32,000 nucleotides of DNA from Candidatus Saccharimonadota bacterium (lineage in GTDB: Bacteria > Patescibacteriota > Gracilibacteria > BD1-5 > UBA2023), in NCBI GenBank assembly GCA_963706795.1, contig OY970170.1:30001-62000 (forward strand), read 5' to 3'. Below are positions 667 to 32,000 of this stretch, piece by piece. The position numbers and the translations under genes are program-made. The notes under the pieces were generated by a model. That model saw only the letters and a program-made list of their open reading frames with translations. It made no database searches and was not told the DNA's origin. Each line of letters opens with the position of its first letter. The stretch's first letter is position 1.

Positions 667-834
667 TGATGCCCACACAGGAGTACTGCAACAACACAAA
701 AACGACAATAGTGAATAGCTCCTTTACGGCGTATACTTAAGTGGACTTGCACAACAGTTTGCGGAATTTCTGACACATGGAAGGATGAAAGAAGATGGCC
801 GACTACGGACATTTATTCGTTAAAACTTCATCCT

Positions 835-2346
835 ATGAAATATACTCGGAAATGAATCGTTGCAATTTCGATACTCTCGATTGCATCCATTTTTACACTT
901 TGAGCGAGCGCGGCGACAACCTCGACCGTGAATCTCGGTGAAACATCAGGCTTTGCCATTTTGGCCGGCACTTCCGTCACCAATATCGGAGCGAGCACAA
1001 TTACCGGAAATATTGGAGTCAATCCTGGAACTACGATCTCAGGATTTGCCCAATGAACGGTCTTCGGAACGCAACAAATCGGAAGTACTTCTGCTATGCA
1101 GGCACAGACTGATTTAAATAACGCCTATAGCGATATTAATGGACGTGCTAATCCAACAATACTTTCGAGTGACATTGGTGGCACAACGTTGACACCAGGT
1201 CTCTATCATGCAAATGCAGCATTGAGCGTTAATGGCATCGTCACACTCGACGCACAGGGTGATCCAAATGCCATATTTGTAATCCAGGCAATGGACAGTA
1301 TGAATATAGCCTCTGGAAGTCAGATCCGACTTATTGGATCAGCTCAAGCATGTAATGTGTTTTGGCAGAGTAACAATAGCGTATTCCTTGGATCGAATTC
1401 GATCAATCTTGGTAACTTTATTGCTGCCAACTCTATTTCACTTGCCAATGGTGCCCTACTCAATGGACGTGCATTATCTCGTAATGGAAGCGTGTCACTC
1501 GACACAAATACAATCAGCGTTCCTGTATGTACTCCCCAGTCTCCTTTAGGGACTCTGCGAGTTATTACCAATGTTATCAATAACAATGGTGGAAACATGA
1601 GTGCAGCCAGTTTTACAGTACGAGTTCGTTTGAACGGAAATTTTGAAGTACCAGGAAGTCCTGCTAATGGCATGATCTCTCCAGGTCTCAGTTATAGTCT
1701 CACTGGAAGTAGTACATATGTAGTCACTGTAGATAGCAATGTCTATCCTTATGCAACTGCACAATTCGGAACGGATTGTAGCGCACAGGGATCTGTATAT
1801 CTACCTGTTGGCGCAATACGTACTTGTACGATTACACTCGATGACATTGCCCCAATTGACGTATGTCCATACGGAGATTTTTCTCCAAATAAATATGACG
1901 GGCATTGTGTAGTACCCGTGATTGCTGTGGTCTCAAAGGCTATTCCAGCCGAGGTACCATTTGCAGGAAGCACGGTAACCTACACATATACGATCTCTAA
2001 TCCAGGACGTGTCGCTCTCTCAAATGTTGATATCTGAGATAACGGATGTTCGGATATCCACCCACGTTCTGGTGACATCAATCAAAACGGACTCCTCGAT
2101 ACGAATGAAGAATGGAATTATACATGTAGTACTTTTGTCAGCTATTCAAGCATGAGCACGGTTCGTGTAAGTGGTGATGCTGATGGACTCACTGCAGTAA
2201 ACACAAATTATTCATCAGTAACGGTTGCACCATATACATCAACTCCAGTTGTTGTTACACCAAGCTTCCCAAATACCGGTTTTGGTCCACGTACTACGAC
2301 TTTTATGGATCGAGCTTTCGGCATTTATAATGCACATATACATTAG
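835..2346 (+). CDS. secreted surface protein: signal peptide + DUF3494/ice-binding-like beta-helix domain + Ig-like/DUF11-like C-terminal domains, FPNTG sortase-type motif near C-terminus (4 in-frame TGA)
   Basis: ATG at 835 gives MKYTRK[TGA]IVAISILSIASIFTL[TGA]ASAATT (signal peptide). Then LGETSGFAILAGTSVTNIGASTITGNIGVNPGTTISGF...AQTDLNNAY...GGTTLTPGLY...DAQGDPNAIFVIQ...ACNVFWQ, the signature of the DUF3494 family. Track ORFs 1096..2037 and 2152..2346 are in the same frame and joined by TGA 2035-2037. FPNTG lies at 2266-2280 and the stop is TAG 2344-2346. Confidence 0.8.
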
Positions 2347-2382
2347 ATCTAAGGTATTTCCATTCTTTGATTTTGAGACTCG

Positions 2383-2997
2383 ATGATTCCACTTATTTGA
2401 ATACAAAGTCTCACGGTCTTATGGATGGTCGCTTCCACTTTTTTGCCCTGAGAGGCAATCGCCTCGGTAGGAATACAAAAAGTACGTATCATCAATATCT
2501 CACCGCAAGCTATCCCCAAATGACAGGTGATATCAAAGCCTGAGATTCCGGTGGGAATACCAATTCTTCTACGCATCCCTGCCATTAAGCTCAGCGCACG
2601 AATCGAGTCGGTATGAATCAAGCTCAATGGTGCAATGGGCACTCCGGTACTTCCGAGTAACGTAGGTTGGTATTCTCCCTGAATACGACCTGGTGAAACT
2701 GGCAGCGCGGTAATAGCAGGACACCTCGACGATCAAAAAGGCAGACCGGCAGCTTTTGCACATCTCCAAAAACTCATCATTTGAGACACAGTATTTGTAC
2801 AAGATAATCTTGGAGCCGAACACGCCTTTGTCGTTCGTCAGGTCAAACAATATGCGAGCGACGAGAATGCTGATGAAGTGTTTGCTACGAGCAAATGACA
2901 ACATCTCAATCTCATCACTTGTGCAGGTTCATGGGACGTATCTCGCAAAATCTACACCAAAAGACTGGTCATCTTCGCCGAGAGAGTCCTAGAGTAA
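2383..2997 (+). CDS. sortase family transpeptidase (peptidase C60; class E/F-like), 5-6 in-frame TGA
   Basis: Hand translation in frame 1: MIPLI[TGA]IQSLTVLWMVASTFL (membrane anchor) ...IPAIKLSARIESV[TGA]IKLNGAMGTP...NVGWYSP[TGA]IRPGETGSAVIAGHLDD (catalytic His) ...FAHLQKLII[TGA]DTVFV (conserved GD) ...LNLITCAG (TLxTC-type Cys) ...RLVIFAERVLE (Arg). Stop is TAA 2995-2997. The standard-code track shows only spurious fragments on both strands here. Confidence 0.8.
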
Positions 2998-4342: not shown

Positions 4343-4354
4343 GAACAAGAGATT

Positions 4355-4861: not shown

Positions 4862-4882
4862 ATGCAATCAAGGTAAAAGATA

Positions 4883-5302: not shown

Positions 5303-5719
5303 ATGAAATTGGATACCAACATGGAAGTCGTTCCTGCCCGAACAAAACAAAGATGAAGGCCTCGCGTAGCAAAAGCTCTAGAAACAGCCAAAGATGCCAC
5401 GTACAAAACACTTACCCCTCCATCCAATCAGCCATACCAAAAGCAGATTGCATATGACAAAGTAAGCGCATTCATCGACACAGGAATCCTCCTCGATGGA
5501 AAGATCCGTGGCAAGGAATTTTTTAAGGGCTACGGCTTTGTAGAATTTAGTGAATCTGCCTACGAATTTCAGGCATCAAATGTCCTTATTAACCCAAGAA
5601 GACACGACGGGTTCGAACAAATCAGGATTGGTATGAATGTCCGATTTTTAGTAACTGCGAGCAAGATAAACTCAGATGGACTCAGTGTCGAGATTGTCAT
5701 CAAAGAAATCTCCAAATAG
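5303..5719 (+). CDS. small hypothetical protein with N-terminal AT-hook (R-G-R-P, Gly encoded by TGA) and possible OB/cold-shock-like C-terminal half
   Basis: ATG at 5303 gives MKLDTNMEVVPARTKQR[TGA 5354-5356]RPRVAKALE...GKEFFKGYGFVEFSESAYEFQASNVLIN...RIGMNVRFLV..., ending at TAG 5717-5719. It is absent from the standard-code track because the TGA splits it. Confidence 0.5.
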
Positions 5720-5725
5720 GAGACC

Positions 5726-6373: not shown

Positions 6374-6487
6374 AAAAAAAGAGTAAGTAATTACTACATT
6401 CTCACTCTATTCATCGCTTATAAATGGGAATAGCCCTATTGTAGGCGAATACTTAAGGTCGCGAAAACATAAATGTACTGGATTGCC

Positions 6488-8980
6488 CTATTTTGTGGCG
6501 CTCACAAAAGATGCTGCGAGAAATCCGGTAAACAATTCTTTGATCTTTGCGAGGATTTCTTTGCGGGATTTTACTGAGATCTCCTTGAGTTGGACGGTTC
6601 CATTTGGTAAAAATATAGGATCCCAATTACCAATATCTCCTTTCATTTTACGTGCCTCGTATTCTTCGCGAGTAAGGGTATTGAGGGAGACATTTCCGAG
6701 TACGATACGCTTGATCGATACATTTTTTGTAGCAACTTCTTGGCCTAAACGCTTATTGAGCATATCTTGTAAGATATCCACGCCATTCTCTGTGACATCA
6801 TTATCAGCAATCTGTAAAATGACTGGACAGCGTGCACCATCTTTAATCTCTTTTGCATATGCTACATCAGTTGTCAGTTTTTGATCATACTGTTGAGCAA
6901 TATTTGCCCAAGCAGTAACGTCATTCGTTCCGCCTTTGAGCGTATGAATTCCTTCATTAAGCTCCGCCATTCGTATCGAATCAATATCACCAGCAAAAGC
7001 ACTCGAAAATGAGCTGTATGGTGTACCATCTCAATAGAGCAAGAAGTTTACAGGGATCTCATAATCAGGATCTTCAAGCCAATCTCTTAGATGAGCCTCA
7101 AGATGCTTCATCGCAATAAAAAGAACGGTTGGAATAATATGCACCATTCCGTTGGCTTTGTACATATCCATGCTACCAGAGATATCTATTGCGAAGCAAA
7201 TATCCATCTTGCGATACGTATCAGCCAATGCTTCAGTGACATTACTTTTATCGTAGAGCGATTTGGTATGAATATCGGTCGCCTCTGGATTTTGCGCTAT
7301 ATAGTCACGAACACGTCCGGTGTTCAGCCTTCATTTTTTGCGCGCGTCGAGCGTTACAAGCTCTCGCTTGTCGAGTGTTTGGATTTGTTCCAAAAAGAAC
7401 TGAACGAGCGACTCAATCATTGCTCATTCTTTGGTCAAAATATTATTCGTGATTTCCTTTCCGTTTTTTCATACGCCAGAAGACTCTAAAATCGAAGATA
7501 CATCATAGTTCTTTTTTTCAGCAAGTTTTCGCACAAGTTCTTTGGACTGCTGTGCATCTTCGGCTTCATCGACATCATCGAGAAAATCTATTTTATCCTG
7601 GATATCAGGTGATTTATGAACGGATTCTCCACTAGTTTTTGGATTTTTATCTCTAGATGGATCTGACGCATCTTTTTCTGCGTCGTCGGATGTCTTTGTA
7701 TCAGATTTTCCATTATCAGGCTCCCCATTGCCCTCTCCGGATTTTCATCCACCATTCCCTACGGTTGGATCAGGGAGATCTTGTTTAAAGAGATCCATGA
7801 TAATGCAGGCCTTTTGGATCGGCAAAAAGAGCGTACTATAAATTTTGTAACGAAGTGCTGGAGTGATATCCAAAATATGTTCACTTCACTCTCGTCCATG
7901 TGAAGCACAAAAGAGTGCAATGCAATCAATGAGCGAAATATTCGCACTAATATATGATTTTTTAGTACCCGTTTGATCGATTGCGAGACTCAAAAGCCCA
8001 AGAATAGTGGTATCTGTGGACATGTTTTGAAGTTGCCCACGCATCAGAATATACTCTCACTTTAGCGCGGTAGCACGTGCTTGGATTTTTGTATCTGAAC
8101 TTGCCTGTGTTGCCTCAAAGGCATCATCAAGCAATTTTGCAGTACGTGCCACAGAAGTTTTCCACGGATTCTTGCGTGCCCTTGTATCGTCCGCGAATAA
8201 AATATCCGAGACTACTTTGGGTAAAAAAATATCTTGGTCCTTTACCATAGCAGCACGCAGAAGGTAATACGGAAGTGCCGTCGAAAATGGCTTCGTGCTA
8301 TAATCAACCTCGTTCGTGTCGTTGATTCTAAAAGAACCATTTCCCTTGCCGACAAAGATGAGATTTTCATCATAGTCACCATTTATTGGATCAGGAATTC
8401 GATCCGCAAAGAGATTATATTTGTAAAACCCTTGGAGATGTTCGGCGCTGATATCACTTCCCGAAAACATCTCTACTTCTTTATTAACGATGATATCGTC
8501 AATGCAATTAAAGAGCGTATGGAGATGGCTTCAGATTGGGACTTTTTTATCAGTACCATAATTTAATGCAGTAGTGTGAAGCGACTCCAAAAACGCCTTC
8601 ATAGAGGCTCTGCCGGTTTTTTTGGATTCCATAAGGAGGTCGCGAAAGTGCGAGAGCTCATGGAAGAGACCAAAAAAGAGATCATTCCATGTATAGGCAA
8701 ATCCGTGTACTGCCTGTCCATTATTTTTGAGCAGATTTGCATGAAAATCCATGAGCCACTGCTGTGGAATATGGATCATCCGATCTGCTGGACTAAAAGC
8801 AAAACTCTGCCCATCTGACACCTGATACTTTACGGGCGATGGCACAGAGAGAAACATACGAAACTGCCCATCCATAGAGGCAACCTTCGCATGAAATACC
8901 CCAAGAAAATCGTCAAAATTCTCGGGAATTTTCGCCGAGTGATTGACTGACTGTGGAGCGTTTGAAACAAGAGGAGACAT
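6488..8980 (-). CDS. 830-aa HExxH metallopeptidase-like N-domain + acidic low-complexity linker + C-terminal von Willebrand factor A (MIDAS DxSGS) domain
   Basis: Track ORFs 8531..8980, 8057..8470, 7031..7228 and 6488..6970 are all in one frame. I translated every gap (7229-8056 included) and found only TGA, with no TAA or TAG. Motifs: FGLFHELSHF (HExxH); linker GEGNGEPDNGKSDTKTSDDAEKDASDPSRDKNPK...DFLDDVDEAED; VWA CFAIDISGSM and LKGGTN. The stop is a genuine TAG at 6488-6490. Confidence 0.8.
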
Positions 8981-9033
8981 AGTGTTTACTACAGACTATC
9001 CGAATGCGGTTTTATTTACAAATTTGCGCTCAT

Positions 9034-10314
9034 TTATGAGCTGTTATTTAAAAGAAACTGTTCATGAAATTTGTAATCATCGAATTTGTTGGTGACATGT
9101 ATTCAATATGTATGAGCCATATCGAGTTGCTCAAGCTCAGTCAGTGTGAGGTTGAGACTATTTGCAAGATGCAGACTTTTGATTCAGGCGGCACTTGCCC
9201 TTACAAGGACCTTGTGCAAAGAGTCCTTATGAAAATTCTTAATCGATCGAAAAACATTCTGTCCCAAGTCCAGGCTCCGAATACCTGCTCGCCCCGCTAC
9301 TTCTAAGAAATGACTAATATCATCGACATTTTTAAGGATATCTTCCAGATCATTGTTTTGAAGACTCAAATATCGTATTCCTGCATATCCTGCAGTCTCT
9401 ACAAAACTTTCAAGTTCTTTAAGACTAAAGATTCGTTCGAGATGATTCTGCCCGAAGTACAGACTTTTTATGCCTGATCGTCCTGCTACTATGGCCATTT
9501 CTATGAGCCCTTTTGCATCAATAGCACAAGCAGTGGGCCTGTCGTATGCAAACGCTGTTCCACTGAGATCGAGACTTCGAATTCAAGCAAGGCCAGCTGT
9601 CTTTACAAACTGGATGAGCTCTTGTATGGTGAATAGACCTATTCATTGTACTTTTTCACCTATCGATGCATCAAGGTGACGAATTCATTTTTCTCATAAT
9701 TCTTTTACAAGCGCGATAAATTCTGGGGTGGGTAGCCCGTTACAATATTCTGAGTTTGAGATTTTGAGCGCAGTGATTTCATCGGCGCACATATTCTCGA
9801 GTTGTGCATAAAACTGCTCTTTATGCTTGGTATCTATATGCATTCACCATGGCGTCGCACCAACACTCCCTTTGCGCTCGTAGATGAGATTATCCAATCA
9901 AAATTCCTGGATAAGTTTCTTCCAAAATTTATTAAAAAGCTCGGGTGCGACATTTTGGCCAATGATCGCGGCATATTCTGTGAATGCCTCACCGAGTGGA
10001 GTCAGCTCTCATTTTTGTCGAAATACTTGCTCTTCGAGGTTTTGAGATATTCGAGCATCAGAGAGGAGAATCTTTGTTTTATATTCACTGAAATTATATG
10101 GAAGTTCAGACGTCCTAAATAATTCTATATGCTGGCGAATTAGGGATTCGAGATGCGCAAGATGCTCTTGGTTTGCTTGTATATTTTCTTGTACATCTCA
10201 TCAAACCAGGTTTAAAATCTGTGCTATATGCTCCCGTATGTTTGGCTGCGCAATAAAATGAGCGATCGATGAGATCGATTTTTGAGAGACGGGATCGGTA
10301 TGATGAATAGACAT
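9034..10314 (-). CDS. array member 15: N-module/LRR family protein (426 aa)
   Basis: ATG 10312-10314 gives MSIHHTDPVSQ...IAQILNLV...YNFSEYKTKILLSDARISQNLEEQVF...LGEAFTEYA...KLIQEF[TGA]LDNLIYE. The LRR units include VKTAGLA[TGA]IRSLDLS, MAIVAGRSGIKSLYFGQN, VETAGYAGIRYLSLQNN and LEVAGRAGIRSLDLGQN. All 427 codons were translated without TAA or TAG, ending at TAA 9034-9036. Track fragment: 9184..9498. Confidence 0.85.
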
Positions 10315-10317
10315 GGA

Positions 10318-11286
10318 TTATCTCTTATAGATTACATGAATATTATATCTGCTTTGGATCTCTTCTAACTCGCAACGTTGCGCATATGAAGAATTCGGCT
10401 CGTATCACGAATTACGAATATTAAGAAAGCGAATACCTGATTTACCTGCAAGTTCAACGAGTGTTAAAAGCTGAGCAAAACTGTATGCACGAAATAGGAT
10501 ATCATTAAGAATCTTCAAAGTTCGCACGCCTGATGCACCCGCAACTTTCACAATATCGAGAAGGTCATCAAAACTCAGAACATGGCCGATATTACTGTCT
10601 CGAAATTCAATAGCACGAATCTCCATACCTCAGGCAATTTTCATAATCTCTATAAAATCCTCTTTACTCAGTATTCAAACTACAGATCATACTTCAAAAA
10701 TGAGAGTACGACTCCCCTGACTCTGACAGTGAGAAACAAAACCAAAAATACTGTCTCGAGAAGAAGGTCAAAAACCGTGAGACTTGTGAAATCTCTTCTC
10801 ATTTAACAGATCACTCGTGGCCGTATAAATAATCGCGTCTAATCCAAGCTCAGATATGAGTTTGATTTTAAATTTTGCTCATATTTCAGATCCGTGAGAC
10901 AAATTCATGCATTCGAAATAGTCATAGAATGCCCTTTTGAGCGGCTCAGAATATGGCTCATTGAACACATCATTTTCAAGTACTTGCAGCATTTCGCTGT
11001 CTGTAAGTAGGAGTCATGTAGGATACGTGTACCATTCGTACAATGGGGGCGCTCTACGGACTTCCAAGGCGTAATTTTGTATACAAAGATACAGATTTGA
11101 TTCGAGCTCTTTTGTCTTGTAATAGCTCCTATCAAGCTCTATTTGAGACTCGTCGGGGAGCATATCTAAAATCCGAGTCACAGCCTCATGAATTTCTGGC
11201 TGCGTGATAAAAGAACTATCTGGGATGATGGACGCATTTAAAATCGGGGCGAAATTTTGATTAATCATAGGAATATGATTGTTCAT
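10318..11286 (-). CDS. array member 14: short N-module/LRR family protein (322 aa, only about 3 repeat units)
   Basis: MNNHIPMINQNF...VTRILDMLPDE...AFYDYFE...KFKIKLISELGLDAIIY...IMKIA[TGA]GMEIRAIEF...VKVAGASGVRTLKI...VELAGKSGIRFLNI. Track fragments 11014..11286 and 10405..10626 are joined by TGA-only gaps that I translated. Stop is TAA 10318-10320. Confidence 0.85.
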
Positions 11287-12874
11287 ACTGCTCGAGTTCG
11301 ATCATGATATGATCTGTGGGGGCGAATATAATGCTTCAATTTTCATAGGTATCGTAGACAACGAGTTCGACTATGAGATTATTTGCCTGCGCAATTGCAC
11401 GCATTTCTTGCTTAGTGTCTTCAGAAAAAATGACCTCACCGTAGGTTCCTACATAGAGCTTTTTTATTCAGGTAGAGGCCATATGAGTCATAAGTGGCAC
11501 TCCGTACTCATCCGAGAAATCTAAGCCTGGTGTTTCATGATTAAAATATAAGTTTTTAATACCTGATTCTCAAGCAACTTTGATCATATCCACGACATCC
11601 GCGATTGAATAATCGCAGGATTTCCAATTGCTAAATGCAAAATCGCGGATTCCCGACTCCCCTGCAAGTTTTGTGATTTTTATAATCGATTTGAAATCCA
11701 AAGTCTGTTCAAGGTCACTGAGCTTAAGATATACTTTTTTTATACCGGATTGCCCCGCCGTTGAAATTAAATGCATAAAATCATCGATGGTTGCACCTTC
11801 GTACATATCCAAATCTGAAAAGTAGATAGCCCGTATACCTGATTTTCCTGCTATTTTTGCAATCTCAGTCCAATAGTGGATATCTGGCTTCACCAAGGTA
11901 TTAAAAGAAATATTCGAAAAACGAATGTCGCCAAACCCCGCTTGTCCAGCCGTACGAACGATCTCCATAAGCGACTTCGGATCTTGATTTTTCTGAGTTT
12001 CTCGAAAATCAGCCTGTATATCAAGAAACTCCATCGTGATATTTAGACGATCGAATTCCCGCAGAAATCTACAGGCGTCTTTGGGATCAAACTTCAATAA
12101 GAAATCCCAAGTTGGAAGCTTGAACACGGTGATGCCTTCTGCATTTGCTGCATGCAAAAGCTCCAGAGCTCCATCACAAGAATCTTGCCCTCTGTAATCG
12201 AGATCTAAATACTCGAGCTTAACTGATCCTTTGGCCGCAAGGTGGATATGTTTGTTAAAATCCTCGAGTGTCAATCCGCTGGCTGATGGCTCAGTGTAAT
12301 CAAGTCGTAAAGCAGTCGCCCCCGCTTGTCTCATTAACTGAATCTGAGAGATAAATTCTTTCTCATTCGAATATACAATATCCTTCGAATCCCAAAAAAG
12401 TCACTCATCTATTCTATAATTTGAGCCGATATCCCCAGTTTGTTCGTACACAAGATCACCAAGCCCGAGATCTTGCATAACTTTTCGCTTAAATTTTTCC
12501 CTAAATTGCGCATCAAGAGGCTCAATCGAGTCTATATGATTGTAGAAGACATTCTGTAGGTCTGCAAGATCAGCATCTCTGATAAATACTTCCTCGAGTA
12601 TTCTGAGCACTTCTTTCCTTGGCAGCTGAAGTCGTTTTGCGTAGTCCTCAAAATTATAGGTGGACTGAGTTGCAAGGTATGCGCTGGCAAGCTTTCGAAT
12701 ATTATCTGCCAATCGATGCTGCACATTAAGTTGAGTATCCAACTCTTTAATTCAGTCATCAGGAATGAGACTGAGGATTTGAGAGACATTTTCACCTATG
12801 CTTGACTGCTCGACAAAAGACCCATCTGGAAGAATGGGGGTGCCTGATGCGAAAGCGATATTCTGATTATTCAT
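11261..12874 (-). CDS. array member 13: N-module/LRR family protein (537 aa)
   Basis: ATG 12872-12874 gives MNNQNIAFASGTPILPDGSFVEQSSIGENVSQILSLIPDD[TGA]IKELD... Track fragments 12401..12742 and 11570..12334 are followed by a translated 100-codon tail (...VA[TGA]ESGIKNLYF...AST[TGA]IKKLYV...) ending at TAA 11261-11263. Confidence 0.85.
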
Positions 12875-14423
12875 AAACATGATACGATCAAGCTCTACCA
12901 TCGAGAATGAGTCTTATGTTATTTGTTTGAGCAAAGGCACACATTTTTTGCTCAACATGTGTAGCAAAGTTCACAAGACGGAGGTCGTTTACTTCTAGAT
13001 TTTTCATGCCGGTATCTGCCATAATAGCAAGTAGTAGCATCCCATCGTCATCAGAGAACCCAATACCGCACTTATGCATATGAAGCTCTAAACTTTTTAT
13101 ACCTGAAATTCAGGCAGTACGTATCATTTCTGTAATATCTGAAGCAATCCATTCACGAGCTCAGCTGTCATGATCATAATCTCCATGAAGGCTGAGACAA
13201 AAATCAAGAATTCCTGAATCTCCTGCACATTTGAGCAATATCTCAGCAGTTTTGGTATCCAAAATATCCTCAAGTCCGCTCAGTCTAAAATTAAATCTTT
13301 TAATGCCCGAGTGACCTGCGACTGAAATTAAGCACATGGCATCCCGTATATCTGTAGTTTCATATATCTCAGTTTTCCCCATGGTAATACTCTTGATACC
13401 GGAATCACCCGATACCTTGGTAATTTTTGCCCAATAATCGATATTCGATTGAATAGACCCTCAGAAGAAAATGCCAGAAAAATCAATATCACCCACCCCA
13501 GCATTCCCCGCCATTTTTACAATCTTCATAAGCAACTTTGGATCTCTATATATTTCAGAATCACTATCACTCAGATCAAGATTGCCACCCGTCCTATTGA
13601 GATTTTCAAGTTCCTTAAAGAAATTCTGAATATCTTTTTGCTCAGAATCAAGCAAGAAAGACTCAGTTGGGAGCATAAGTAGGGTAATATTTGCCTCTCT
13701 TGCGACATGAAGTAACTCTATTGCCTGGGCACAATGAAGCCCTGGATACGCGATATCCACATAATGAAGTGGCACTATTCATTGCGAAGCGATCTGAATA
13801 TGTTCTTGGAGTTCCTGGGTAGTTAGCTGACTTATACCAGTATAATTAAGGGTTAATGAGGTGATTCAGGTTGTTCTCGCAGACCGAATCTTTGAGCAAA
13901 ATTGCGCGACATCCTTGCAGCATATTTCCTGATGTTTATCCCAAATATCTACTAGATAGCTTGACGATATATCTCCAGTCCGTTGGTAGACAAGATTGTC
14001 CAGATTCAAATCCTGTACGACTTTTAGTTTAAATCGTTCTCTAAAATTTGGGTCAAGATTTTGAATCGAATCGACATACTCATAAAAAGCTTTTCACAGA
14101 TCCGTGAGAACGTTATTTTGTCGAAATATCTCTTCCTCAAGAATCCTGAGTACTTCTTTGCTCGGCAATTGAAGACGCAGAGCATAGTCTCGAAAATTAT
14201 ATGCAGATTGTGTACCTAGATATTCTTGTGCAGCTTCACAGAGATGATCTGCGGATTGATTCACGAGAGTGAGCTGCGTGCCAAGGTCTTCGATTCACTG
14301 CTCAGGAATAAGGCTTAAAATCTGAGAGACATTTGTTCCAATATCAATTTGCTCGCCAAAAGACCCATCAGGAAGGATGGGTGATTGATCAGTGGGAGCT
14401 AGATGATTAAGAGATAGTGACAT
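12867..14423 (-). CDS. array member 12: N-module/LRR family protein (518 aa)
   Basis: ATG 14421-14423 gives MSLSLNHLAPTDQSPILPDGSFGEQ...SQILSLIPEQ[TGA]IEDL...YNFRDYALRLQLPSKEVLRILEEEIF... This N-terminal part is invisible in the track because TGA chops it. Fragments 13461..13775, 13161..13382 and 12888..13079 are in the same frame. RTA[TGA]ISGIKSLEL is present. Stop is TAA 12867-12869. Confidence 0.85.
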
Positions 14424-15954
14424 AGTCATCGTATTCACGGGCTCTAAAGCCCAATTTAAAATTATGAAGTCTCGCCATATCTGTAAGTTGTTGCATGGAT
14501 TCTTCGGAAAGCTTCTCTCCTCGATATATACCTCCTAAATGCAAAATACGAATACCCGAAGCCACAGCCACAGTGATAATCCTCATAAATATCTCCTCAA
14601 CAGGATTTTTGGATTCTAGGATTTCCGTGGAGTTAAATAGACTATTATTATTAAGATTCAGGACGCGAATTCCAGCCTGACCCAAAGCTGTAATGAGACT
14701 TAAATAGCTATCTAAACCACCTTGCGGAACGCGATAGCTAAAATAAATATCTAGGATTCTCACTCCTAAATTGCCCGCAAGCTTGATTGCATGTATAAAT
14801 TCTTCAACTTCTGTGCTACTCTCCAAATTGATCCGTCAAGTATGCATCCCTTTAATTCCATGTGCACCTGCAGTGGAGATTACTTGTGTAATTCTTTGTA
14901 TTGCAAGATGAGACAGATCTCATGATAGATCTCATCAGAAATCTAAATTCTTTATTCCGGATATTCCTGCCGCTCTCATGAGCCTAGTACAGTCGTTAAC
15001 GCTCAACAAAGATGCATCTAGCATCAATTTAAGCTCTCTTATTCATATTGATCCAGCAATACGCACTACCTCTATAAGAAAATTAATATCTTTAAGTGAT
15101 GGATTTAGTTCATCCGAAAGTTCTAGGCGATCTACAATTATATCCAATTGAACTCATTTTTTTAAAATACGCTGCACATTCTCAAGGTCTCAATCCAAAA
15201 GAATTGCACTTTCGATCCTGAGCTGAACACCAAACTCCCGAGCAGTCTCGTATAACTCTTCAATTTCAAGAGAGGACAATCAATTAAAATCAATAAATAT
15301 CTGCTCAAGCTCACGCCTCTCTACAACAAGCCTGATATGATCTTTCAGGTCTCAAAGCGTCAAGTTCTTGGGTCTGCCATATACTTCATAACTGAATACT
15401 ACCTCCGTAACATCTCTGGGTAGCTCACGAATAAAACCTGCAAATAAGTCAGCTTTATCGTCATCATAAATCAATGAAGCCTGTTTTGCTTCTTTCTTTT
15501 CTATCTCAGGAAACTCATACACGAGATTCGTAAGTCAAAAGTCTTCAATTACCTTTAGCTTCAGCTTCGTGTCATATCACAAATTCGCATTCGAAATACT
15601 ATTTATATAGTCATAGAAGGCTTGTCCTAGAAGATTTATAACACCATTTTTTTGTAAGATTTCTTTTTCAAGAATACTCAGAACTTCTTCGGTTGGCATA
15701 AGTAGCCGCCTGGCATAGTCTCTAAAATTATATTTAGATTGGACTTGGAGATATGTTTCAACAGCTGTACGTAGATTGTTCGCTGACTGATTGAGACTAT
15801 GGAGTTGCAAATCCAGTTCTTGGCGTTGCTCATCAGGAATGAGATTTAAGATCTGAGCAACATGTTCACTGATGCCTGATTGCTCGCCAAAAGACCCATC
15901 AGGGAGGATGGGTGATTGATCAGTGGGGGCGAGATGATTAAGAGATGATGACAT
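14407..15954 (-). CDS. array member 11: N-module/LRR family protein (515 aa)
   Basis: ATG 15952-15954 gives MSSSLNHLAPTDQSPILPDGSFGEQSGISEHVAQILNLIPDEQ... I translated 14827-15576 in frame and found 11 TGA and no TAA or TAG. KVIEDF[TGA 15535-15537]LTNLVYE is present. Track fragments: 15577..15960 and 14407..14826. Stop is TAA 14407-14409. Confidence 0.87.
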
Positions 15955-17473
15955 AGCCACAGTAAGCGTTAGCCATAAAGCCTAATGTAAAATTATGCAG
16001 TCTCGCTGTGACTGTGAGTTTTTGCATGGATTCTTCGGAAAATATCTCACCTTTATATGAGCCGCCTAAATACAAAACATTGATTCCGGCACCAGCAGCT
16101 ACCGAAATTATCCTCATAAGTACTTCCTCGATTAGATTGCCAGACTCTAGGATTTCCTTTTCGTTAAAAAAGTCACCATCTCCAAAATGCAGGACGCGAA
16201 TTCCAGCTCGACCGAAATTCTCTATAAGGCTCAAAAGATTATTGAATCCGTATGGTAAGTCGAGATGGCTAAAATCAATTTGTAAAACTCTCACTCCCAA
16301 ATCACTCGACATATTCATACATTCTTGAAGCTCTTCAAACTTCGCTTGAGTTTTGAGATTAATGAGTCAAGTATGCATATGCTTAATTCCACATGCACCC
16401 GCGTGAGAGATAATTTGCATAATCTCTTTTACGTCGAGCATATCTAATGGTGTGACGGCAAAATTTATACTCTTTATCCCATACATTCCTGCCACTGTAA
16501 TGAGTTTGAGATACTGCTCGACCCTGAGTAGCTCATACGCCCTAAAACTCAGCTTGCTAATTCATATTAAACCAGCAATGTGAGTCATCTCAACGAGGCG
16601 ATCAAAATCCTTAAGAGCAGGATTCACCTGATCAGAAAGCTCTAAAGAATTTGCAGTTATGCCTGATTGAACACATTTTCTCAAAGCATTACTTATATCA
16701 TTAGGGCTTCAATCTAGTAGCATTGCGCTATCGATCGTCAATTTGAGCCCAAATTGACGCGCTGTTGCTGATAATTCTTCAGCATCGCTTGGGGTCAATC
16801 AGTCAATGGTAATCGATATTTCCTCTAGTATCCTTGTCTGTGCAGCGAGCTTAATGTGATCCTTGAGATCTTGGAGCTGTAGATGCTGAGTAATATCTCT
16901 ACTGTAATGAAATAGTATTTTTTTTATATCAGCTAGTGTCTCGAGTATGTCGCTCTGAATATGATAATCTTCGTCATATTTATACATTATTAATTGCGCC
17001 TTCACTGGCTCTTTCTTGTTGGTATCAAGACGCTCATAGACTAAATTAGCAAGGCCAAAGTCTTTGATTACTTTTAGTTTCAGTTTTTCAGTATCAGCAA
17101 AATCCGTATCTGAAAGATTATGTGTATAGCTGTAAAATGCTTCTCATAGGAAGTTTCTCACGCCGTTCTTTTGCAAAATTTCTTCCTCAAGAATTCTAAG
17201 AACTTCTTGACCTGGTAGCCGGAGACGTTTAGTATAATCCTCAAAATCATATCCTGATTGTACCTGGAGATATGTTTCAACAGCATCACGAAGTCGCTTC
17301 GCGGATTGATCCAAAATATTTAACTGCACATTCAGCGACTTACGATCCTCATCAGGAATAAGACTCAAAATCTGTGAAACATTATCCCTGATACCAGACT
17401 GCCCACTAAAAATACCCTCAAAATTGATGAGCGATTCGTCTGTATGGTGGATCGAGTTATTAGGAGCAGTCAT
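15938..17473 (-). CDS. array member 10: N-module/LRR family protein (511 aa)
   Basis: MTAPNNSIHHTDESLINFEGIFSGQSGIRDNVSQILSLIPDED... Track fragments 17144..17473, 16799..17005 and 15938..16318 are in one frame, and the gaps I translated contain TGA only. VIKDFGLANLVYE is present. Stop is TAA 15938-15940. Confidence 0.87.
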
Positions 17474-19008: not shown

Positions 19009-19102
19009 GCAGGCTTTCGTGATGATATCTTTGCGATTTTACCCTTCTTTGTAATTGCTCACAAATTATGGAGCTATTTTGTCTTATTTAAGACATCTCT
19101 CG

Positions 19103-20692
19103 TTACCAAACATGATAAAATCCGCGATCGTATGATCCATATGTCAATTTCATCTGGTGCTTTGTATAAACCCGATCAATATAAATAGAATGATGAGGAT
19201 CATCTTTTGGTAAAAAGAGATTTTTAATGCCCGAGGCAGCAACATAAGAAAACAATCTTAGATAAGCATCTGCCGTAAATTTCTCGGGATTTTTGCTTAT
19301 AAACAAACCATTATTTCAAAAATGAAATACCTTGATCCCCGAGCTTCCAGCTGTTTGTAGAATTCCATTAAATTCTGTAAGATCACCTGAAACCGGAAGA
19401 GTTGCATATCCATTGGATGAGAGATCGAAATCGCGTATTCCTACATCCCCAGCAGCTTGTACAATAGTCTCCAAATCTTTAAAACTCGTCATAGCAGCAA
19501 GATCATTGTCACTCAAGCCGAGTTTTTTGATCCCTGCGAGACCTGCTGTCCGTACGAGCAATTGAATATCCTGCACACTTGAATCGAGGCTTAACCCTAT
19601 ATCAGAGAGATTAAGACTTTTTATTCCGGCAAGCCCTGCTACTTTGACGCATTCAATCCAAAAATCTATGCCAATATGAGGAAATTGCATTCACAAATCA
19701 ACGCTCGAAAAATTAATCTCTCGAATGCCTGCAGCCCCTGCCAGTGAGACAATCCTAAGAATAGACTCTGGAGTTACAGTATATGGGTCATTTCAGGTAT
19801 TTGATAAATCAAGATACGTGGTTTTGAGTGTGCTCGTCGCATTAAGACGACCTATTTCCTTTAAATATTCGAACATCTCTTCATAGCGCCATGCTCGCAG
19901 TAGGCCATGCTCTAAGATTCAAAGATTCGTCATTTTTAACTCAGTGGCAGTACGTAGAAGTTCAATAACCTCATAACTTTCGAGTTGCCCCTCATGAACT
20001 ATCTGAAGATATTTGAGCCCTGGAACATTCTGTGCAGCGGTTTTTATATGTGCTTTTATACTCCCTAACTGTCTCTCAAGCACAATATCAGATTGATCCC
20101 CATACTGGAAAATCAAAGTATTTCTCCTGTATTCACCTGCCTCCACTATCTGTGCATGGAAGTCCTGATATGGATGATAGTCTCTCGACTTATTATAATG
20201 GAGTTGCTCTTTTTTGGATGACTCATCATTGAGATATCCCTCGCTTGCTCGCTCATGCACCAAGTTATCTAGCCCAAACTCCTTGACGACCTTAATTTTA
20301 AACTTTGTCTCATCTACCTGACTCAGTCCTGTCATGGTTTTAATATACGCGGCAAATGCTGCTCACAAAGGAGTTTGTGTATCATTTTTTTGAAATACCT
20401 CCCGTTCAAGAGTCTCAAGGATCTGAGTATCTGCAAGCAAAAGACGCTCCGAGTAATCTTGGAAAGTATAATTGGATTGTTCACGATTAAACTCCTCAAT
20501 TGACCTTAAAAGTCCATTCGCCACTTGCTGAACATGACCTAGATCCTGATCGAGTGATTGACGTTGCTCGCTTGGAATGAGATCAATGATATGAGCAACG
20601 TTTTTACCAATATCAGGACGCACCGCAAAAGAACTATTTGATGGAAGAATAGGAAGTGGCAATGCTGGGGGCGTTTGATTATTAAGAGACAT
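19103..20692 (-). CDS. array member 8: N-module/LRR family protein (529 aa)
   Basis: I chose ATG 20690-20692 (MSLNNQTPPALPLPILPSNSSF...) by alignment with the sibling N-termini. Fragments 20363.., 19919..20335, 19316..19690 and 19103..19306 are in one frame and I translated the gaps. The LRR units include VKVAGLAGIKSLNLSD, VRTAGLAGIKKLGLSDN, VQAAGDVGIRDFDLSSN and LQTAGSSGIKVFHF. The stop is a genuine TAA at 19103-19105. Confidence 0.87.
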
Positions 20693-25435: not shown

Positions 25436-27004
25436 TTAAATAAGAAGACGGAGATTGAATTTTTCGGCGATTACCCTTATCTCAGGCAAAAGGTGATTGA
25501 ATCGGCCAGCGAGATTACCGCCAGAGAAGTCCAAAAATCATATTCCAGCAATTCCAGCAGTATTTAAAAACTCAAGTAATGAGTGATCGTGTAACAAATC
25601 TCCAATATATCCGTGATTAAATTTAAGACTTCTCACTCCTGACTTCCCTGCTAATTGAATAAAACCCATTAAGCCAGCCATATCTTCTGTGAGATAAATA
25701 AAACTGAGGTCTATATTTTTTAGTCACACAGATCCTCCATCCTTAAAGAGATCCATCCAATCCGCTATTTCAAAACCGGTAGATATTAGACTCTCAGGTA
25801 ATTTGATATCTCGCACTCAATTTTTACTAGCAATATTGGCAAATTCGATGAGATCTGGATATGTAATGTGTGAATACGTATTCAGAAATATATTGAGATT
25901 GAGCGAGGTGTGACCCGAAGCACCTACTGCTCTCACAAACTCAGCAAAATCCTGCGTCGAAGTGGTAGCTGCAAAATGATAATCACTCATCTTTATTTTG
26001 TTTCTGAGACCAGATGTAGCAGCAGTGTTTAGGAGAGTTATTGCCTCTGTAATAGTATATTCTCGGTGTGTCCCGTCAGCCATATTATCTCCGAAGGTTA
26101 TACTCTGTAATCATGATGCACCCGCAGTACGAAGGAGTTGTTGGATATGCACAATGGGCGTATCTCGTTTAACGAGTGAGTTCTCAGTGAGAATGAGCTC
26201 ACGAATACCAGCTTTCCCAGCTGCTTCTACAAACTCTAAAAGCTCTTCAAATTCTCAAAAACTATCCTGTAAGTCATTCGATGACAAATCAAGCACTGTA
26301 ATCCCAGATGCCCCAATTACTTTTACGATCTGTATCCATTCTTTGGGAGTATATGAAAAGCATTTTAAGAGGGCAAGAGCCTCAACATTTGAATGCTTTA
26401 AAACACCAATAATCTTCATAAGATATGGAGCATCCATGCCATCTTCAACAGCAATGGTTGGCATCATTGCATCAGTAAGTTGCCCGATTACAGACATGAA
26501 TTGCTCCATGTATTCAAACTGTACTTCAATGCTCTTTTTTGGAGCAAAAGAGGGATAATACTCACTCTCAAAAACCAGATCCTCGAGCCTAAACTCAGTC
26601 ATGATCTTTTGCTTCATATTTTCATAAAAGCCTGTATCATCCTTGCTCACAATGCTTGATATGTAAGCCTCGAGAGCTTCTCAAAGGTCTGTTTGAATAC
26701 CATTCTTATGGAGGATATTCTCATGAAGTATCTTTTGGACTGCAGACACATTCAAGACAGTCAGTCTTTCGCTGTAGCCAGAGAAATTATAACTTCTTTG
26801 AGTTTCTTTGACCTTGAGAATCTCTTCAGTGAGCCTAGAGGCAAGCCCTTTGATATGCTCGAGGGATGAAGCAATTTCTGCATGGTGATTCTCTGGAATG
26901 AGCTCGAGAATCCTATGAACGCTTTCGTTCATTTTGTGATCAGCAAAATATCCCTGATCTTTAGGATTCAATGAGTCGAGAGCGGAATTATTAATCGAGG
27001 ACAT
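25436..27004 (-). CDS. array member 4: N-module/LRR family protein (522 aa), close paralog of member 3
   Basis: MSSINNSALDSLNPKDQGYFADHKMNESVHRILELIPEN... Fragments 26681..27004, 26255..26650 and 25817..26083 are in one frame. I translated the gaps and the 127-codon tail (...IQLAGKSGVRSLKF...NTAGIAGI[TGA]FLDFS...RFNHLLPEIRVIAEKFNLRLLI). Stop is TAA 25436-25438. Confidence 0.87.
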
Positions 27005-28596: not shown

Positions 28597-30150
28597 TTAT
28601 GAGTTATTGCTCACACTTGCAGCAATCGTCACATTGCTAGACCGAAGGATTTCACGGAAACTGTCTATGTCTCATTGAGAGTAGCACGCAGCGAGTCACG
28701 GTAGCAGGACTCACTCTCCTGACATATCTAAGTACTTCAGCCCATTTTCACCCGCGACAATGACGAGTGAGGAAAAAGCCGGCAAGGAAAAAATATCGTG
28801 CATACCATTCCATGCAAAACTTAATCTCTTGATGCCTGCACAACCAACAGACCTCACAATATCAATAAAATGCTCCATTTCTTGGGTATAATCATTATCA
28901 TATCCACTCGAATTCACACTCAAATCCCTGATCCCAGATTCTCAGGCAATTTCTATAAATCGCTTAAATCCATCAAATCCAAGCACAGACGAGAGTGATT
29001 CGCTATTAAAAACAAAACGCTTAATGCCAGATGTGCCTGCTGTTTTGACCATCAAAAAGAGATCGTCTGGAGTCAGATGAGCATTCACCATCTCAGTGGA
29101 TGAGAGATTAAAATCGGTAATACCGGAGTTACCTGCAACACGAACGAGCTCTATGAATTGATTAAAATTCATAATGTCCTCAAAAGAGTTAGAAGACATA
29201 TCCAGACGCTTCATGCCCGCATGTCAGTATGCGCGGACTATATCAAATATTTGTTCCGCATTAAATCGGCAACTCAATCAAACTCAGAAGTTCGATGCAA
29301 AACTCAATTGTTGCATGCCGAGCTCGTCTGCTATACGTATATAGTCATAAACCTCCTCCAAAGTCCATTCCGCGAGCGGATACATCGATCAATCTATTGA
29401 TGGTATACCATATTCTTTTGCTGCGTGCATAAGCATTACAGCTTGTTGGTAAGTGAATCTATCTCTTCATACGACCCGAACACGTTTCGGCAGATACGGA
29501 CCTTTGCTCAGTAATTCTAAATGTGCCTTTATTTGCTCAAAATGTACCGTGGGCCTTGAAGAGTAGGAAAGACTCACAAAATCATGCGGGGAAGTTGTCT
29601 GCTCTCGTATCTTTGACGCCATCGCGTCATCGCTGTCTTTTGCGGTCATCCTGATACTCACATCCGAAGGCAATACGTAGATATCTTCAGAATTTGCCAG
29701 AGTCGCGTTACTCGGTCTCTCATATACCGCGTCCAAGAGCTTAAATTCTCGGATCACTTTGCGTATCATGCCTAGCGCAATCTCGCCTCAGTCTATTTGT
29801 AAACATTGTATATATTCACGGAATGCATTTCATACAGGAGTTTCAACACCTCGAGTATTGAGAATTTCCTGATTAAGCAGATCCATAATCTCTTCCTCTG
29901 AGAGTAAAAGTCGCTCTGGATAATCACGGAAGTCATACGAAGACTGCTCGAGCTTGAGCGCATCTACGGCACTCTGTAATCGAGCGGTTATCTCATGCAG
30001 TTGCTCAAATTGAGCACTGAGCACACTACTCTCCTCGACTGGAATAAGCTCAAGAATCTGGTGAACATTCGCACTAATTTTTGGATCAGTAAAATACCCC
30101 TGATCTTTAGGATTTGATGAGCCGAGTACGGAGTGGTTGAGACCTGGCAT
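28597..30150 (-). CDS. array member 2: N-module/LRR family protein (517 aa)
   Basis: ATG 30148-30150 gives MPGLNHSVLGSSNPKDQGYFTDPKISANVHQILELIPVE... Fragments 29830..30150, 29467..29769, 28942..29214 and 28711..28923 are in one frame. I translated all gaps and found TGA only; RAY[TGA]HAGMKRLDMSSN is present. Stop is TAA 28597-28599. Confidence 0.88.
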
Positions 30151-31721
30151 TAGTCTATACTAAGATACATATTGAATTTTTGCGAAATTTCGGCGATTTT
30201 GTCAGAGAGACCTTCAAAGAGTTGACCGAAACCGTTATCTTCAAGATTCAAATGTCTTATTCATGCACTTCCGGCCGCGATTAGAAATTCGAGGAATGAG
30301 TAGTGATCGAATAGACCATCAAGTGCATTATCCGAGAGGTTCAGACTTCGAATCCCTGATGTACCTGCGAGTTGTACAAATTTTATCAAATGGACTGCAT
30401 CAAAATGAGTACTAAGACCATTTCATGAAAGATTTAGGCTTTTGAGCGAACAGGAAGACTCGAACTCTATAAGGTTCATAAAATCTTCGCGATCAAAAAG
30501 GTATTCTAATTCACCAGACGAAAAATTGAGATCTCGGACACCATTGTTTGCCGCAGTATGTGCGAATGCGATAAATTTTTTGCTGGATAGTAATTCGTAA
30601 ACACTGCTTTCTCTCCCCATATACAACGAGGTTATACCCGAGATGCCACTGAGTCGTGCAAGCTCGATAAATTCTTGATCTGACAGCACAGATGTTAGAT
30701 CATAACTCATAATATACGGCCACCTGAGACCTGATTCGCCCGCAGTTCTGACAATCGAAAGAACCTCCGAAGCACTATATTCTCGAGCATCATCACCCAC
30801 TCCATCACTGATATTTAAACAGAGAAGTCCGGAATTACCTGCAACACGCAATAGTTCATGGATTTTTTCGATGGGTAGCCTTATTTTAATGAGCCGATTA
30901 TAATCCAGATTTAATTGGCGAATACCTGAAGTCCCCGCTACTCGAACCAGCTCGATCAGATCATCAAAGTCTCAAAAACTCTTATCTAGATCATTATTCG
31001 AGATCTCGAGAGTATGCATTCCTGACTCACCAACGACCTGTACAATCGTAATCCATTCCTGAGCACGAAAAGAGAGATTACCTGGCATAGTGATCGACAA
31101 AGCAGAGCAATTTACATCTTTTAAAAGCGAAATAGTCTCCACGAGACGGTTCAATCCGAATGTGTTTTCAAATGTAAAACTGAGTGCGACTTCATGTGCT
31201 ATCTCTTGCAAGAAGGTTTCAGAATCAGCAATATTCTCAAGCTGTATATTCACTGGCTCATCCGAAGGCATATTCAGATAATCTTCACCCTCAAAAACCA
31301 AATCCTCGAGAGCAAACTCAGTCATAATCTTTTGTCTCATGCTCTGTCGAAGCCCTCAATTATCATGAGCAAGAATAGTATTTACGTAGGCCTCTAAAGC
31401 CTCTCAGAGCGGAGTTTGCATGCCGTCTTTTCGCAAAATACGCGTCTCGAGCATATTTTGTACCTCACTAGAACTCAGAAGTGCGAGACGTTCACTATAG
31501 TCAGAGAAATTATAGTGAGCCTGGGATTTTTTAAGTTCAATCACTTCTTGCCTGACTTTGTCTGCAAAAGACTCCAAAGTTTGAAGTGACGAAGAAATGC
31601 CAGCAACATTGGATGATGGAATCAGGTTAAGGATACGACTGATATTTTCTTGGACCCTTGAGTCAGCAAAGTTCCCGACTGCGGGCTCTATGGATTCGGG
31701 GGTAAGATTATTAAGCGCCAT
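30150..31721 (-). CDS. array member 1: N-module/LRR family protein (523 aa)
   Basis: ATG 31719-31721 gives MALNNLTPESIEPAVGNFADSRVQENISRILNLIPSS... Fragments 31404..31721, 30972..31340 and 30423..30851 are in one frame. I translated the gaps and the 91-codon tail (VQLAGTSGIRSLNLSDN, IAAGSA[TGA]IRHLNLEDN) down to TAA 30150-30152, which shares one nucleotide with the ATG of member 2. Confidence 0.88.
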
Positions 31722-31724
31722 ATG

Positions 31725-31838
31725 CTAAAAGATGAATTGCATGCCGTAAGATTGTGCGATTGTTTTTATATCGGAGAAATACCCTGTGGATTGGGTGTTA
31801 TTTTGGGGAGAAGGTGCGAAAGAAGAGAGACGAGACAT
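31725..31838 (-). pseudogene. collapsed 37-codon mini-member of the array (family N-terminus fused to family C-terminal tail)
   Basis: ATG 31836-31838 gives MSRLSSFAPSPQNNTQSTGYFSDIKTIAQSYGMQFIF, ending at TAG 31725-31727. The stretch QSTGYFSDIK resembles DQGYFADPK of members 2-4. IAQSYGMQFIF resembles the tail IIQSYGMQLVY of member 7. Confidence 0.4.
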
Positions 31839-31845
31839 CTAGTCT

Positions 31846-32000
31846 TTAATCAAAAGTAAGCTGCATGCGGTACTTAGCAGCGATTGCATACATGCGAGAT
31901 ACATGTTCTGCTGACATTGCGGCGGGCCCATACCTGGCTCAGAGCTTAAGAACACCGATTCACGCGCATCAAGCGGCTTCTATAATTGCAATAGAGGCAT
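31846..32000 (-). CDS. C-terminal end of a further array member (5' part beyond window edge)
   Basis: The frame is open from the window edge: ...ASIAIIEAA[TGA]CA[TGA]IGVLKL[TGA]ARYGPAAMSAEHVSRMYAIAAKYRMQLTFD, ending at TAA 31846-31848. It carries the AGxAGI..L.L unit and a family-type tail (compare KHQMKLTYG in member 8). Confidence 0.7.

Follow-up and report, generated by a model that had tools for sequence, protein, structure and literature searches.

Tandemly amplified leucine-rich repeat paralogs beside a vWA-like protein in Gracilibacteria: candidate adaptors of a MoxR-type ATPase/vWA machine

A stretch of 32,000 nucleotides (nt) from a Candidatus Saccharimonadota bacterium (GTDB lineage Patescibacteriota; Gracilibacteria; BD1-5; UBA2023; assembly GCA_963706795.1, contig OY970170.1, positions 30,001 to 62,000), hereafter called the window, carries on its minus strand a tandem array of genes for paralogous proteins with leucine-rich repeats (LRRs). 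When TAA and TAG are taken as the only stop codons, 15 complete co-directional genes of 322-540 codons lie between positions 9034 and 31721. With a further member, m0, cut at the window edge, the array comprises at least 16 paralogs and represents about 2% of the 1.27-Mb genome (40% guanine plus cytosine, GC). An open frame for a protein of 830 amino acids (aa) with zincin-like and vWA-like motifs directly follows the array. The window DNA is also found in a 1,267,896-bp NCBI/ENA contig, and its positions 1-14288 are 100% identical in the Logan assembly ERR12037365. The genes are listed below in the order of transcription, together with the stretch of member 8 from which this analysis started.

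31846..32000, minus strand: member m0, C-terminal end (...EAAGCAGIGVLKLG...KYRMQLTFD, then the stop codon)
30150..31721, minus strand: member 1, 523 aa; Pfam LRR_1 over the gathering threshold
28597..30150, minus strand: member 2, 517 aa
27004..28572, minus strand: member 3, 522 aa; 64% identity with member 4
25436..27004, minus strand: member 4, 522 aa
23809..25431, minus strand: member 5, 540 aa; the most degenerate repeats of the array; 15 TGA codons
22243..23805, minus strand: member 6, 520 aa
20682..22256, minus strand: member 7, 524 aa
19103..20692, minus strand: member 8, 529 aa when TGA is read as glycine; N-module, then degenerate repeats in the middle, six AG-type LRR units and a C-terminal cap
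19316..19690, minus strand: stretch of member 8 (residues 335-459) with four LRR units; its sole TGA is the last codon
17482..19008, minus strand: member 9, 508 aa; residues 1-175 are the source of the N-module model
15938..17473, minus strand: member 10, 511 aa
14407..15954, minus strand: member 11, 515 aa
12867..14429, minus strand: member 12, 520 aa
11261..12880, minus strand: member 13, 539 aa; residues 161-436 are the source of the alpha/beta solenoid model
10318..11286, minus strand: member 14, 322 aa; short form with three LRR units
9034..10314, minus strand: member 15, 426 aa; last member of the array
6488..8995, minus strand: 830-aa vWA-like protein; HELSH zincin-like motif, acidic low-complexity linker, DISGSM...GGT...ADNDV resembling a metal ion-dependent adhesion site (MIDAS)

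Neighbouring genes of the array abut or overlap, the widest gap among the complete members being 94 nt, which suggests that the array and the downstream zincin/vWA-like gene form one operon. Sizeable non-coding gaps are found at two places only, 19009-19102 (94 nt, between members 8 and 9) and 31722-31845 (124 nt, between m0 and member 1), and both could be sites of internal promoters.

The long frames of the window are open only with TGA as a sense codon. In these genes TGA is glycine (code 25). Indeed, among the paralog cells aligned to the 119 in-frame TGA codons, 511 of 1372 hold glycine (37%, for a background of 6.8%) and only 7 hold tryptophan (0.5%). Relatives kept in the databases as code-4 translations show tryptophan exactly at the glycine positions of the repeat motif, as in "AWESWIRSLNLW".

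The paralogs are made up of a disordered N-terminal tail, an all-alpha N-module, 3 to about 11 LRR units and a C-terminal cap. The tail carries a short conserved motif (..PI(L/I)P.GSF..). The N-module, about 120 aa within the first 150 residues or so, is conserved among the members. A model of residues 1-175 of member 9 is all-alpha, with a predicted local distance difference test score (pLDDT) of 70-84 over residues 27-150 and a disordered stretch over the first 25 residues. No Pfam or NCBIfam match was obtained for the N-module, and the structural search with its model returned no match either (best E 0.08, template modelling (TM) score at most 0.27). The LRR run is degenerate in the middle of the protein and shows clear AGxSGI(K/R)xLxLSxNxL units nearer the C-terminus. 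It is closed by a conserved cap, ..IAxKYNMxLxY. Neither a Sec signal peptide nor a lipobox, membrane segment or sortase motif was found in the 15 members. Such soluble, strongly acidic proteins (net charge -11 to -36), which lack both signal peptides and membrane segments, most probably reside in the cytoplasm, judging from their sequences.

A preliminary description of the window had pointed to the stretch 19316-19690 and proposed that the C-terminal halves are ribonuclease inhibitor-like (RNI-like) LRRs with an unusual AG-containing core. Direct translation of the minus strand of this stretch yields 124 residues and a terminal TGA, and the four peptides that had been quoted from it are recovered verbatim. 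They correspond to units of 31-34 residues located at residues 352, 383, 414 and 448 of member 8. Over the 15 complete members, the strict motif AG..G[IVLMF][KR].[LIVMF].[LIVMF] occurs 45 times, for 0.015 occurrences expected from shuffled sequences. The loose core [AS]G..G[ILVMFH] occurs 64 times, for 2.0 in shuffles. Since each of the 15 members contains it at least twice, the AG scaffold does recur in every member, as had been stated. The consensus of the units is xDfxDLIxFVxVAGxSGI(K/R)xL(N/D)L(S/G)xNxL. From its isoleucine onward, it reads as the defining LRR core LxxLxLxxNxL, with I5, L8, L10, N13 and L15 standing for L1, L4, L6, N9 and L11, respectively. At position N13, asparagine is found in 12 of 26 units, serine in 5 and threonine in 4.

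The spacing from unit to unit has its mode at 31-32 aa and ranges from 28 to 37. The preliminary description had given a period of about 28-34 aa. In the relatives described below, the units are strikingly regular, with a strict 31-residue period. Unit number varies as well: three units are recognisable in member 14, and three to seven clear ones, plus degenerate ones, in the other members. The contrast first drawn between about 3 units in member 14 and about 8-10 in the long members is in line with these counts; about 10 units in a long member are reasonable, because eight are modelled within residues 161-436 of member 13 alone.

The glycine of the AG dipeptide had also been described as often encoded by TGA, which is overstated. 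In the window, TGA occupies this position in 5 of the 64 motifs and the second glycine position in 8 of 64. Its share of the motif glycine codons is 13/128 (10%), against 106/386 (27%) of the other glycine codons (Fisher p = 3e-5), so that TGA is depleted at the motif glycines. No such depletion is seen in the relatives L002 and L009, where the TGA share at these positions is 33% and 22%. One possibility is that, in the lineage of the window, the recoded codon is selected against where a glycine is critical to the structure.

In order to describe the fold, a TGA-free fragment (member 13, residues 161-436) was modelled with AlphaFold2 from an alignment of 18 other TGA-free fragments. The model has a pLDDT of 81.9 and a predicted TM-score (pTM) of 0.81, and its last 140 residues reach 85-98. 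As assigned by DSSP, helices of about 13 residues alternate with 5-residue strands, forming eight strand/helix units. In BFVD, the best global superposition is on a Homavirus "Leucine-rich repeat protein" (TM 0.55/0.51, root-mean-square deviation (rmsd) 6.1 Å), followed by Sylvanvirus F-box proteins (TM 0.45-0.48), with TIM-barrel glycosidases at about 0.3. Overall, global superpositions on LRR and F-box-LRR proteins give TM-scores of 0.45-0.55 and rmsd values of 6-8 Å. The structure prediction called for in the preliminary description thus yields, for this fragment, alternating strand/helix units that superpose best on LRR proteins.

Sequence comparisons point in the same direction. The repeats of one relative, L002_1124, match a single PDB sequence, 3goz_A ("Leucine-rich repeat-containing protein"), with an E-value of 4.9e-6, in register across about seven repeats, with 31 residues per unit in the relative and 29 in 3goz. 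With hhalign, the window repeats also align in register with 3goz, weakly (E 2.8e-4, probability 41%); PDB sequence searches with the C-terminal regions of the window proteins themselves gave no match. In Pfam, LRR_1 exceeds its threshold in two of the nine proteins tested, member 1 (26.2 bits vs. 20.6) and one L002 paralog (28.9 bits). Matches to LRR_4, LRR_8 and LRR_NXF1-5 are sub-threshold, LRR_6 (PF13516) is not reached (12.4 and 14.5 bits for a gathering score of 23.4), and the NCBIfam scan returned nothing meaningful for the family. The family as such has no Pfam, NCBIfam or PADLOC model.

The LxxLxLxxNxL core, the strand/helix model, the superpositions on LRR proteins and the match of the relative to 3goz together support the reading of the repeats as a predicted alpha/beta solenoid of ribonuclease inhibitor (RI)-like type, with a distinct 31-residue subtype of unit that has its own AGxSG turn. 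Like the RI-like LRRs (3goz, F-box/LRR proteins), the units have the LxxLxLxxNxL core and one strand plus one convex helix each, and they would build an open solenoid. The segment AGxSG-I-K-S-L-N-L-S aligns in register with A-I-P-A-N-V-T-S-L-N-L-S of 3goz. However, the unit is of 31-32 residues instead of 28-29, and the family has its AGxSG turn motif, a conserved K/R at position x2 and LRR_6 scores below the threshold. Moreover, an alpha-helical N-module specific to the family precedes the repeats in the same polypeptide, and a conserved C-terminal cap follows them. What stands of the RNI-like assignment is therefore the alpha/beta LRR with its convex helix; the period and the LRR_6 score do not fit it.

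It is highly improbable, and already largely refuted, that the repeats are not LRRs and form either an enzyme domain resembling a (beta/alpha)8 triosephosphate isomerase (TIM) barrel or a toroid made of helices only, with a period of 31 residues: TIM barrels are the top Foldseek matches in the PDB by E-value, yet the similarity is local (TM 0.25-0.37, rmsd 10-16 Å, for an LRR TM-score of up to 0.55 at 6 Å), and a closed eightfold barrel cannot accommodate a number of units that varies between 3 and about 11. Weak Pfam matches to HMGL-like and ComA have to be counted on the side of this alternative, as has the best PDB match of the family-alignment profile, the designed 31-residue toroids dTor_12x31L (E 2.6e-7). 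This last match reflects periodicity and composition, with a low per-residue confidence, and was rejected as a periodicity artefact, the model having one strand in every unit and therefore not being all-alpha. The canonical LxxLxLxxNxL motif also speaks against any non-LRR fold.

The members of the array are strongly diverged from each other. Averaged over pairs of members, sequence identity amounts to 33% for the N-module, 18.5% for the middle region and 24.7% for the C-terminal repeats, in agreement with the high divergence first noted for the C-terminal halves. The most similar members are neighbours in the array: members 3 and 4 (64%), 10 and 11 (49%), 12 and 13 (46%), 6 and 7 (40%). That this divergence reflects diversified ligand-binding surfaces on the concave face of the solenoid, as had been proposed, is not borne out, since divergence is not enriched on this face and the ratio of nonsynonymous to synonymous substitution rates (dN/dS) stays below 1. 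Between closely related paralogs, identity amounts to 60% at scaffold positions, while the concave positions x3, x5, x7 and x8 (27%) and the other exposed positions (30%) diverge uniformly. Position x2, also on the concave face, conserves K/R (of 26 units, 12 have R and 11 have K) and is 72% identical between these paralogs.

For the closest pair, Nei-Gojobori dN/dS values are 0.12 in the N-module, 0.21 in the middle region and 0.28 in the C-terminal region. Its dS is 0.7-1.8 depending on the region and 1.1 overall, and other pairs are at or past saturation. With a dS of about 1 or more even in the closest pair, estimates of selection are limited to regional, non-saturated comparisons; where estimable in this way, regional dN/dS values lie between 0.12 and 0.38, with one outlier at 0.75. 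Comparison of individual units shows neither the shuffling of repeat cassettes that had been envisaged nor intragenic homogenisation in the window. Indeed, the best match of a unit lies in another paralog for 69 of 76 units and, between members 3 and 4, it is the unit at the equivalent position. None of the 15 frames is disrupted. These intact frames, the low dN/dS and the near-saturated dS suggest that the array is old and kept by purifying selection, the repeats being relaxed and not demonstrably positively selected. Nothing in the window array points to positive selection.

The related genes L009 4780-6279 and L002 1124-2542 present another picture. Several of their 31-residue units are nearly identical within a single gene, for example LDAPDFITLVQEAGRSGLRSLDLGDNKLSEK, and nothing like these repeats is found among the old, divergent units of the window. 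Such units indicate, at the sequence level, a recent intragenic repeat expansion in these two genes.

Relatives of the family are few. Protein searches with member 8 and with the 15-member alignment, capped at 8000 candidates, found none, and the cap may have contributed to this result. Such word-based searches probably came back empty because the stored relatives are likely to be fragments or tryptophan-substituted: the entries of this genome in the protein collections are code-11 fragments of 100-185 aa in NCBI/ENA and, in Logan, code-4 translations with tryptophan for glycine at TGA. A first scan of contigs with an N-module pattern also gave nothing, and the full alignment was too divergent to yield a pattern. 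An exhaustive HMMER search of 1.84 billion representatives with an N-module profile retrieved only 26 clusters. Roughly one in four is a code-11 fragment from the genome of the window itself, and the remaining ones, where their length allows it to be seen, share the architecture described above. The relatives that could be traced to named assemblies belong mostly to metagenome-assembled genomes (MAGs) of Gracilibacteria, with one MAG labelled Peribacteria. Gracilibacteria and Peribacteria are ultra-small unicellular bacteria. The loci with an ATPase or a vWA-like gene are the following.

L009, GCA_020049755.1: 856-aa AAA_5 ATPase, 7 paralogs, vWA-like protein
L011, another contig of GCA_020049755.1: 850-aa AAA_5 ATPase, 5 paralogs, vWA-like protein
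L002, Gracilibacteria MAG STC_112: C-terminal fragment of the ATPase, 8 paralogs, vWA-like protein, prfA
L005, MAG labelled Peribacteria: paralog immediately upstream of the vWA-like gene
L006, Gracilibacteria MAG: ATPase (Pfam AAA_5, E 5.5e-12) immediately upstream of the vWA-like gene
L012/L013, distant lineage with 25% GC: ATPase, one short gene, vWA-like protein

In three related loci (L009, L011 and L002), the array is thus located between an AAA_5 (MoxR/McrB-like) ATPase and the vWA-like protein. The latter lies directly downstream of the LRR genes in the window, L002, L009, L011 and L005. The 830-aa protein of the window has only six relatives among 5.8 billion proteins, with counterparts in Candidatus Gracilibacteria MAGs and in the one MAG labelled Peribacteria, and it is 67% identical to its counterpart in STC_112. 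In contrast, the N-modules of the paralogs share no more than 35% identity between genomes, and no one-to-one pairing is seen among them. These comparisons suggest that the paralog expansions are lineage-specific and that the LRR family evolves faster than its vWA-like neighbour. The ATPase also gives a weak Pfam nSTAND3 match, restricted to the P-loop region (28.2 bits for a threshold of 27.2).

In the distant lineage L012/L013, the short gene between the ATPase and the vWA-like protein encodes an N-module-like segment followed by short LRR-like units, and this single-copy layout may represent the unexpanded state of the system. In L012 (2565-3333), this gene is apparently split by a frame change into pieces of 205 and 56 aa. 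The adjacent vWA-like gene contains 46 TGA codons. Just past the L002 cassette, a class-I release factor gene (13580-14656; Pfam PCRF and RF-1) has 3 in-frame TGA codons.

The LRR paralogs and the vWA-like protein begin with a similar peptide, which in the paralogs belongs to the tail predicted to be disordered. In L002 and L009, the paralogs read MSPLTP...(I/L)IP.GSF and the vWA-like protein MSPLT...IPE(N/E)F. In the window, the paralogs read MS(L)NHLAP..PILPDGSF and the vWA-like protein MSPLVSNAP..IPENF (8977-8995). This shared peptide could be a common recognition tag, or it could result from gene conversion at the 5' end of the genes.

The reading that we favour, with a probability of about 0.55, is that a MoxR-type ATPase/vWA machine uses the paralogs as interchangeable adaptors or sensors, and that these were amplified in tandem in Gracilibacteria. 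According to this proposal, the protein made of the N-module and the LRRs would be the third component of the machine. The conserved N-module or the N-terminal tail would dock onto the ATPase/vWA pair, and the LRR solenoid would bind a protein target. Lineage-specific tandem expansion would then provide a repertoire of adaptors with differing binding surfaces. The gene models, the genetic code, the repeat motif, the predicted fold, the rarity of the family and the synteny in related genomes come from the data themselves; we infer the physical interaction with the ATPase/vWA pair, the binding of proteins by the LRRs and the role of the system, either in defence or in host manipulation.

Several points weigh against this proposal. 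The connection of the LRR proteins with the ATPase/vWA pair is drawn from synteny, and in the window only the vWA-like neighbour is visible, since the window ends inside the array and the ATPase side lies outside. Some relatives have other contexts: L007 and L008 stand beside ClpP, and L010 beside NUDIX and TrmB. The N-module score of the L012 gene is weak, its 15.6 bits being meaningful only for a single pre-chosen candidate. Regarding the downstream protein, the vWA assignment comes from a MIDAS-like motif read by eye, with no Pfam or PDB sequence match, and the zincin assignment from HExxH plus a sub-threshold DUF4344 match (E 0.02). The defence families of PADLOC match neither the LRR paralogs nor the 830-aa protein, and the ATPase has only weak P-loop matches there (mad8 and PDC-S73). 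Finally, the fold model covers fragments, and its global curvature is deduced from TM-scores and not from coordinates.

The main rival explanation, which we consider rather unlikely, is that the paralogs are exported effectors or adhesins by which an episymbiotic or predatory Gracilibacteria cell binds or manipulates its host, a role also proposed for LRR protein families of Saccharibacteria and Legionella. The tail and the N-module would then act as a non-classical export signal or translocation domain, and the ATPase and vWA-like proteins would be either unrelated or part of an export or assembly machinery. The size, the fast evolution and the lineage specificity of this LRR family, in a genome that is reduced, are what would be expected in this case, and sortase, sortase-substrate-like surface protein and pilin genes are found nearby. 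The N-terminal motif that, in L002 and L009, the vWA-like protein has in common with the paralogs also fits. So does the closest solved sequence relative of the repeats, 3goz, which we take to be Legionella LegL7, an effector-type LRR protein. Moreover, the Saccharibacteria (TM7) of clade T1 have 12-24 LRR proteins per genome, which are interpreted as adhesion factors (PMC7739484). However, none of the 15 members carries any of the export or anchoring signals that were looked for, all of them being acidic and soluble. In addition, three independent related loci have their array enclosed by the ATPase and vWA-like genes, and the genes there are tightly packed and co-directional; such packing argues for a shared function rather than for chance adjacency.

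A more specific form of the adaptor proposal would be a split, germline-encoded system of ultra-small bacteria resembling innate immunity. Here, 5-16 or more tandem LRR sensors would work for a MoxR-type AAA+ ATPase and a zincin-vWA effector, each recognising a different invader or host protein with its solenoid and using the shared N-module as a plug. Such a system would be a functional analogue of the NLRs in which sensor and NTPase are two distinct polypeptides. In this specific form, the idea is unlikely.

Still more doubtful is that a MoxR-type chaperone system with a housekeeping role has the LRR proteins as its substrates or assembly scaffolds, in which case they would form no recognition repertoire and their divergence would result from old duplication and relaxed constraint. 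A dN/dS below 1 in every estimable region would fit, as would the uniform divergence of the non-core positions, the conserved ladder of K/R at x2 and the lack of recent duplication or gene conversion. The classical MoxR/vWA pairs are indeed maturation chaperones (PMC7159879). A housekeeping role nevertheless makes it hard to explain at least 16 intact paralogs in so small a genome, the independent expansions to 5-9 copies elsewhere and the absence of the family from almost all other bacteria.

Other genes noted in the window, beyond the array and its downstream gene, are the following.

712..2346, plus strand: secreted protein of the Ice_binding/DUF3494 family, with a C-terminal PNTG-like sorting motif
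2353..2997, plus strand: sortase gene following the Ice_binding/DUF3494 gene, with 9 in-frame TGA codons
3857..4321, minus strand: MarR-family regulator

Systems to which the proposed machine can be compared have been described. The MoxR-vWA-centric ternary conflict systems of Kaur, Burroughs, Iyer and Aravind (2020, eLife; PMC7159879) have as third components VMAP, inactive STAND, FtsH and TPR or beta-propeller proteins, and they favour bacteria with a multicellular habit. The related loci resemble them, and above all the subtype with TPR and beta-propeller repeat domains in the third component, in having, within one cluster, a MoxR/AAA_5-type AAA+ ATPase, a vWA-like protein with a candidate effector (here the zincin-like HExxH) and a repeat-domain third component. 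The difference is that the third component has LRRs, which are absent from the types given in PMC7159879, and that it is amplified to 5-16 or more tandem copies. In addition, the host is reduced and unicellular and reads TGA as glycine, and the vWA and zincin parts are recognised from motifs, without profile matches.

Large, lineage-specific LRR families in ultra-small bacteria are also known from TM7 clade T1. Those proteins belong to COG4886 (PMC7739484) and are read as surface adhesins, whereas the family described here is linked to an ATPase/vWA pair and has no export signal. With the NLR/STAND immune receptors, the likeness is the combination of a P-loop ATPase with variable LRR domains. 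Here, however, ATPase and LRRs are separate polypeptides, the ATPase is of the AAA_5 type and not clearly a STAND protein, and the sensor function is conjectural.

LRR solenoids and MoxR/vWA pairs are each well known on their own. An LRR protein as the amplified third component of a MoxR/vWA pair is undescribed in the literature searched, and a literature search for Gracilibacteria with LRR, vWA or paralogs returned nothing specific. The family also shows that, in recoded lineages, fragmented or tryptophan-substituted database entries can alone be enough for a protein family to escape standard searches; these entries probably hid the LRR family from word-based searches. If the link to the ATPase/vWA pair holds, the concept of ternary conflict systems would extend past multicellular bacteria, and the paralogs would be a candidate for how Gracilibacteria, which are probably host-dependent, recognise many proteins with one ATP-driven machine.

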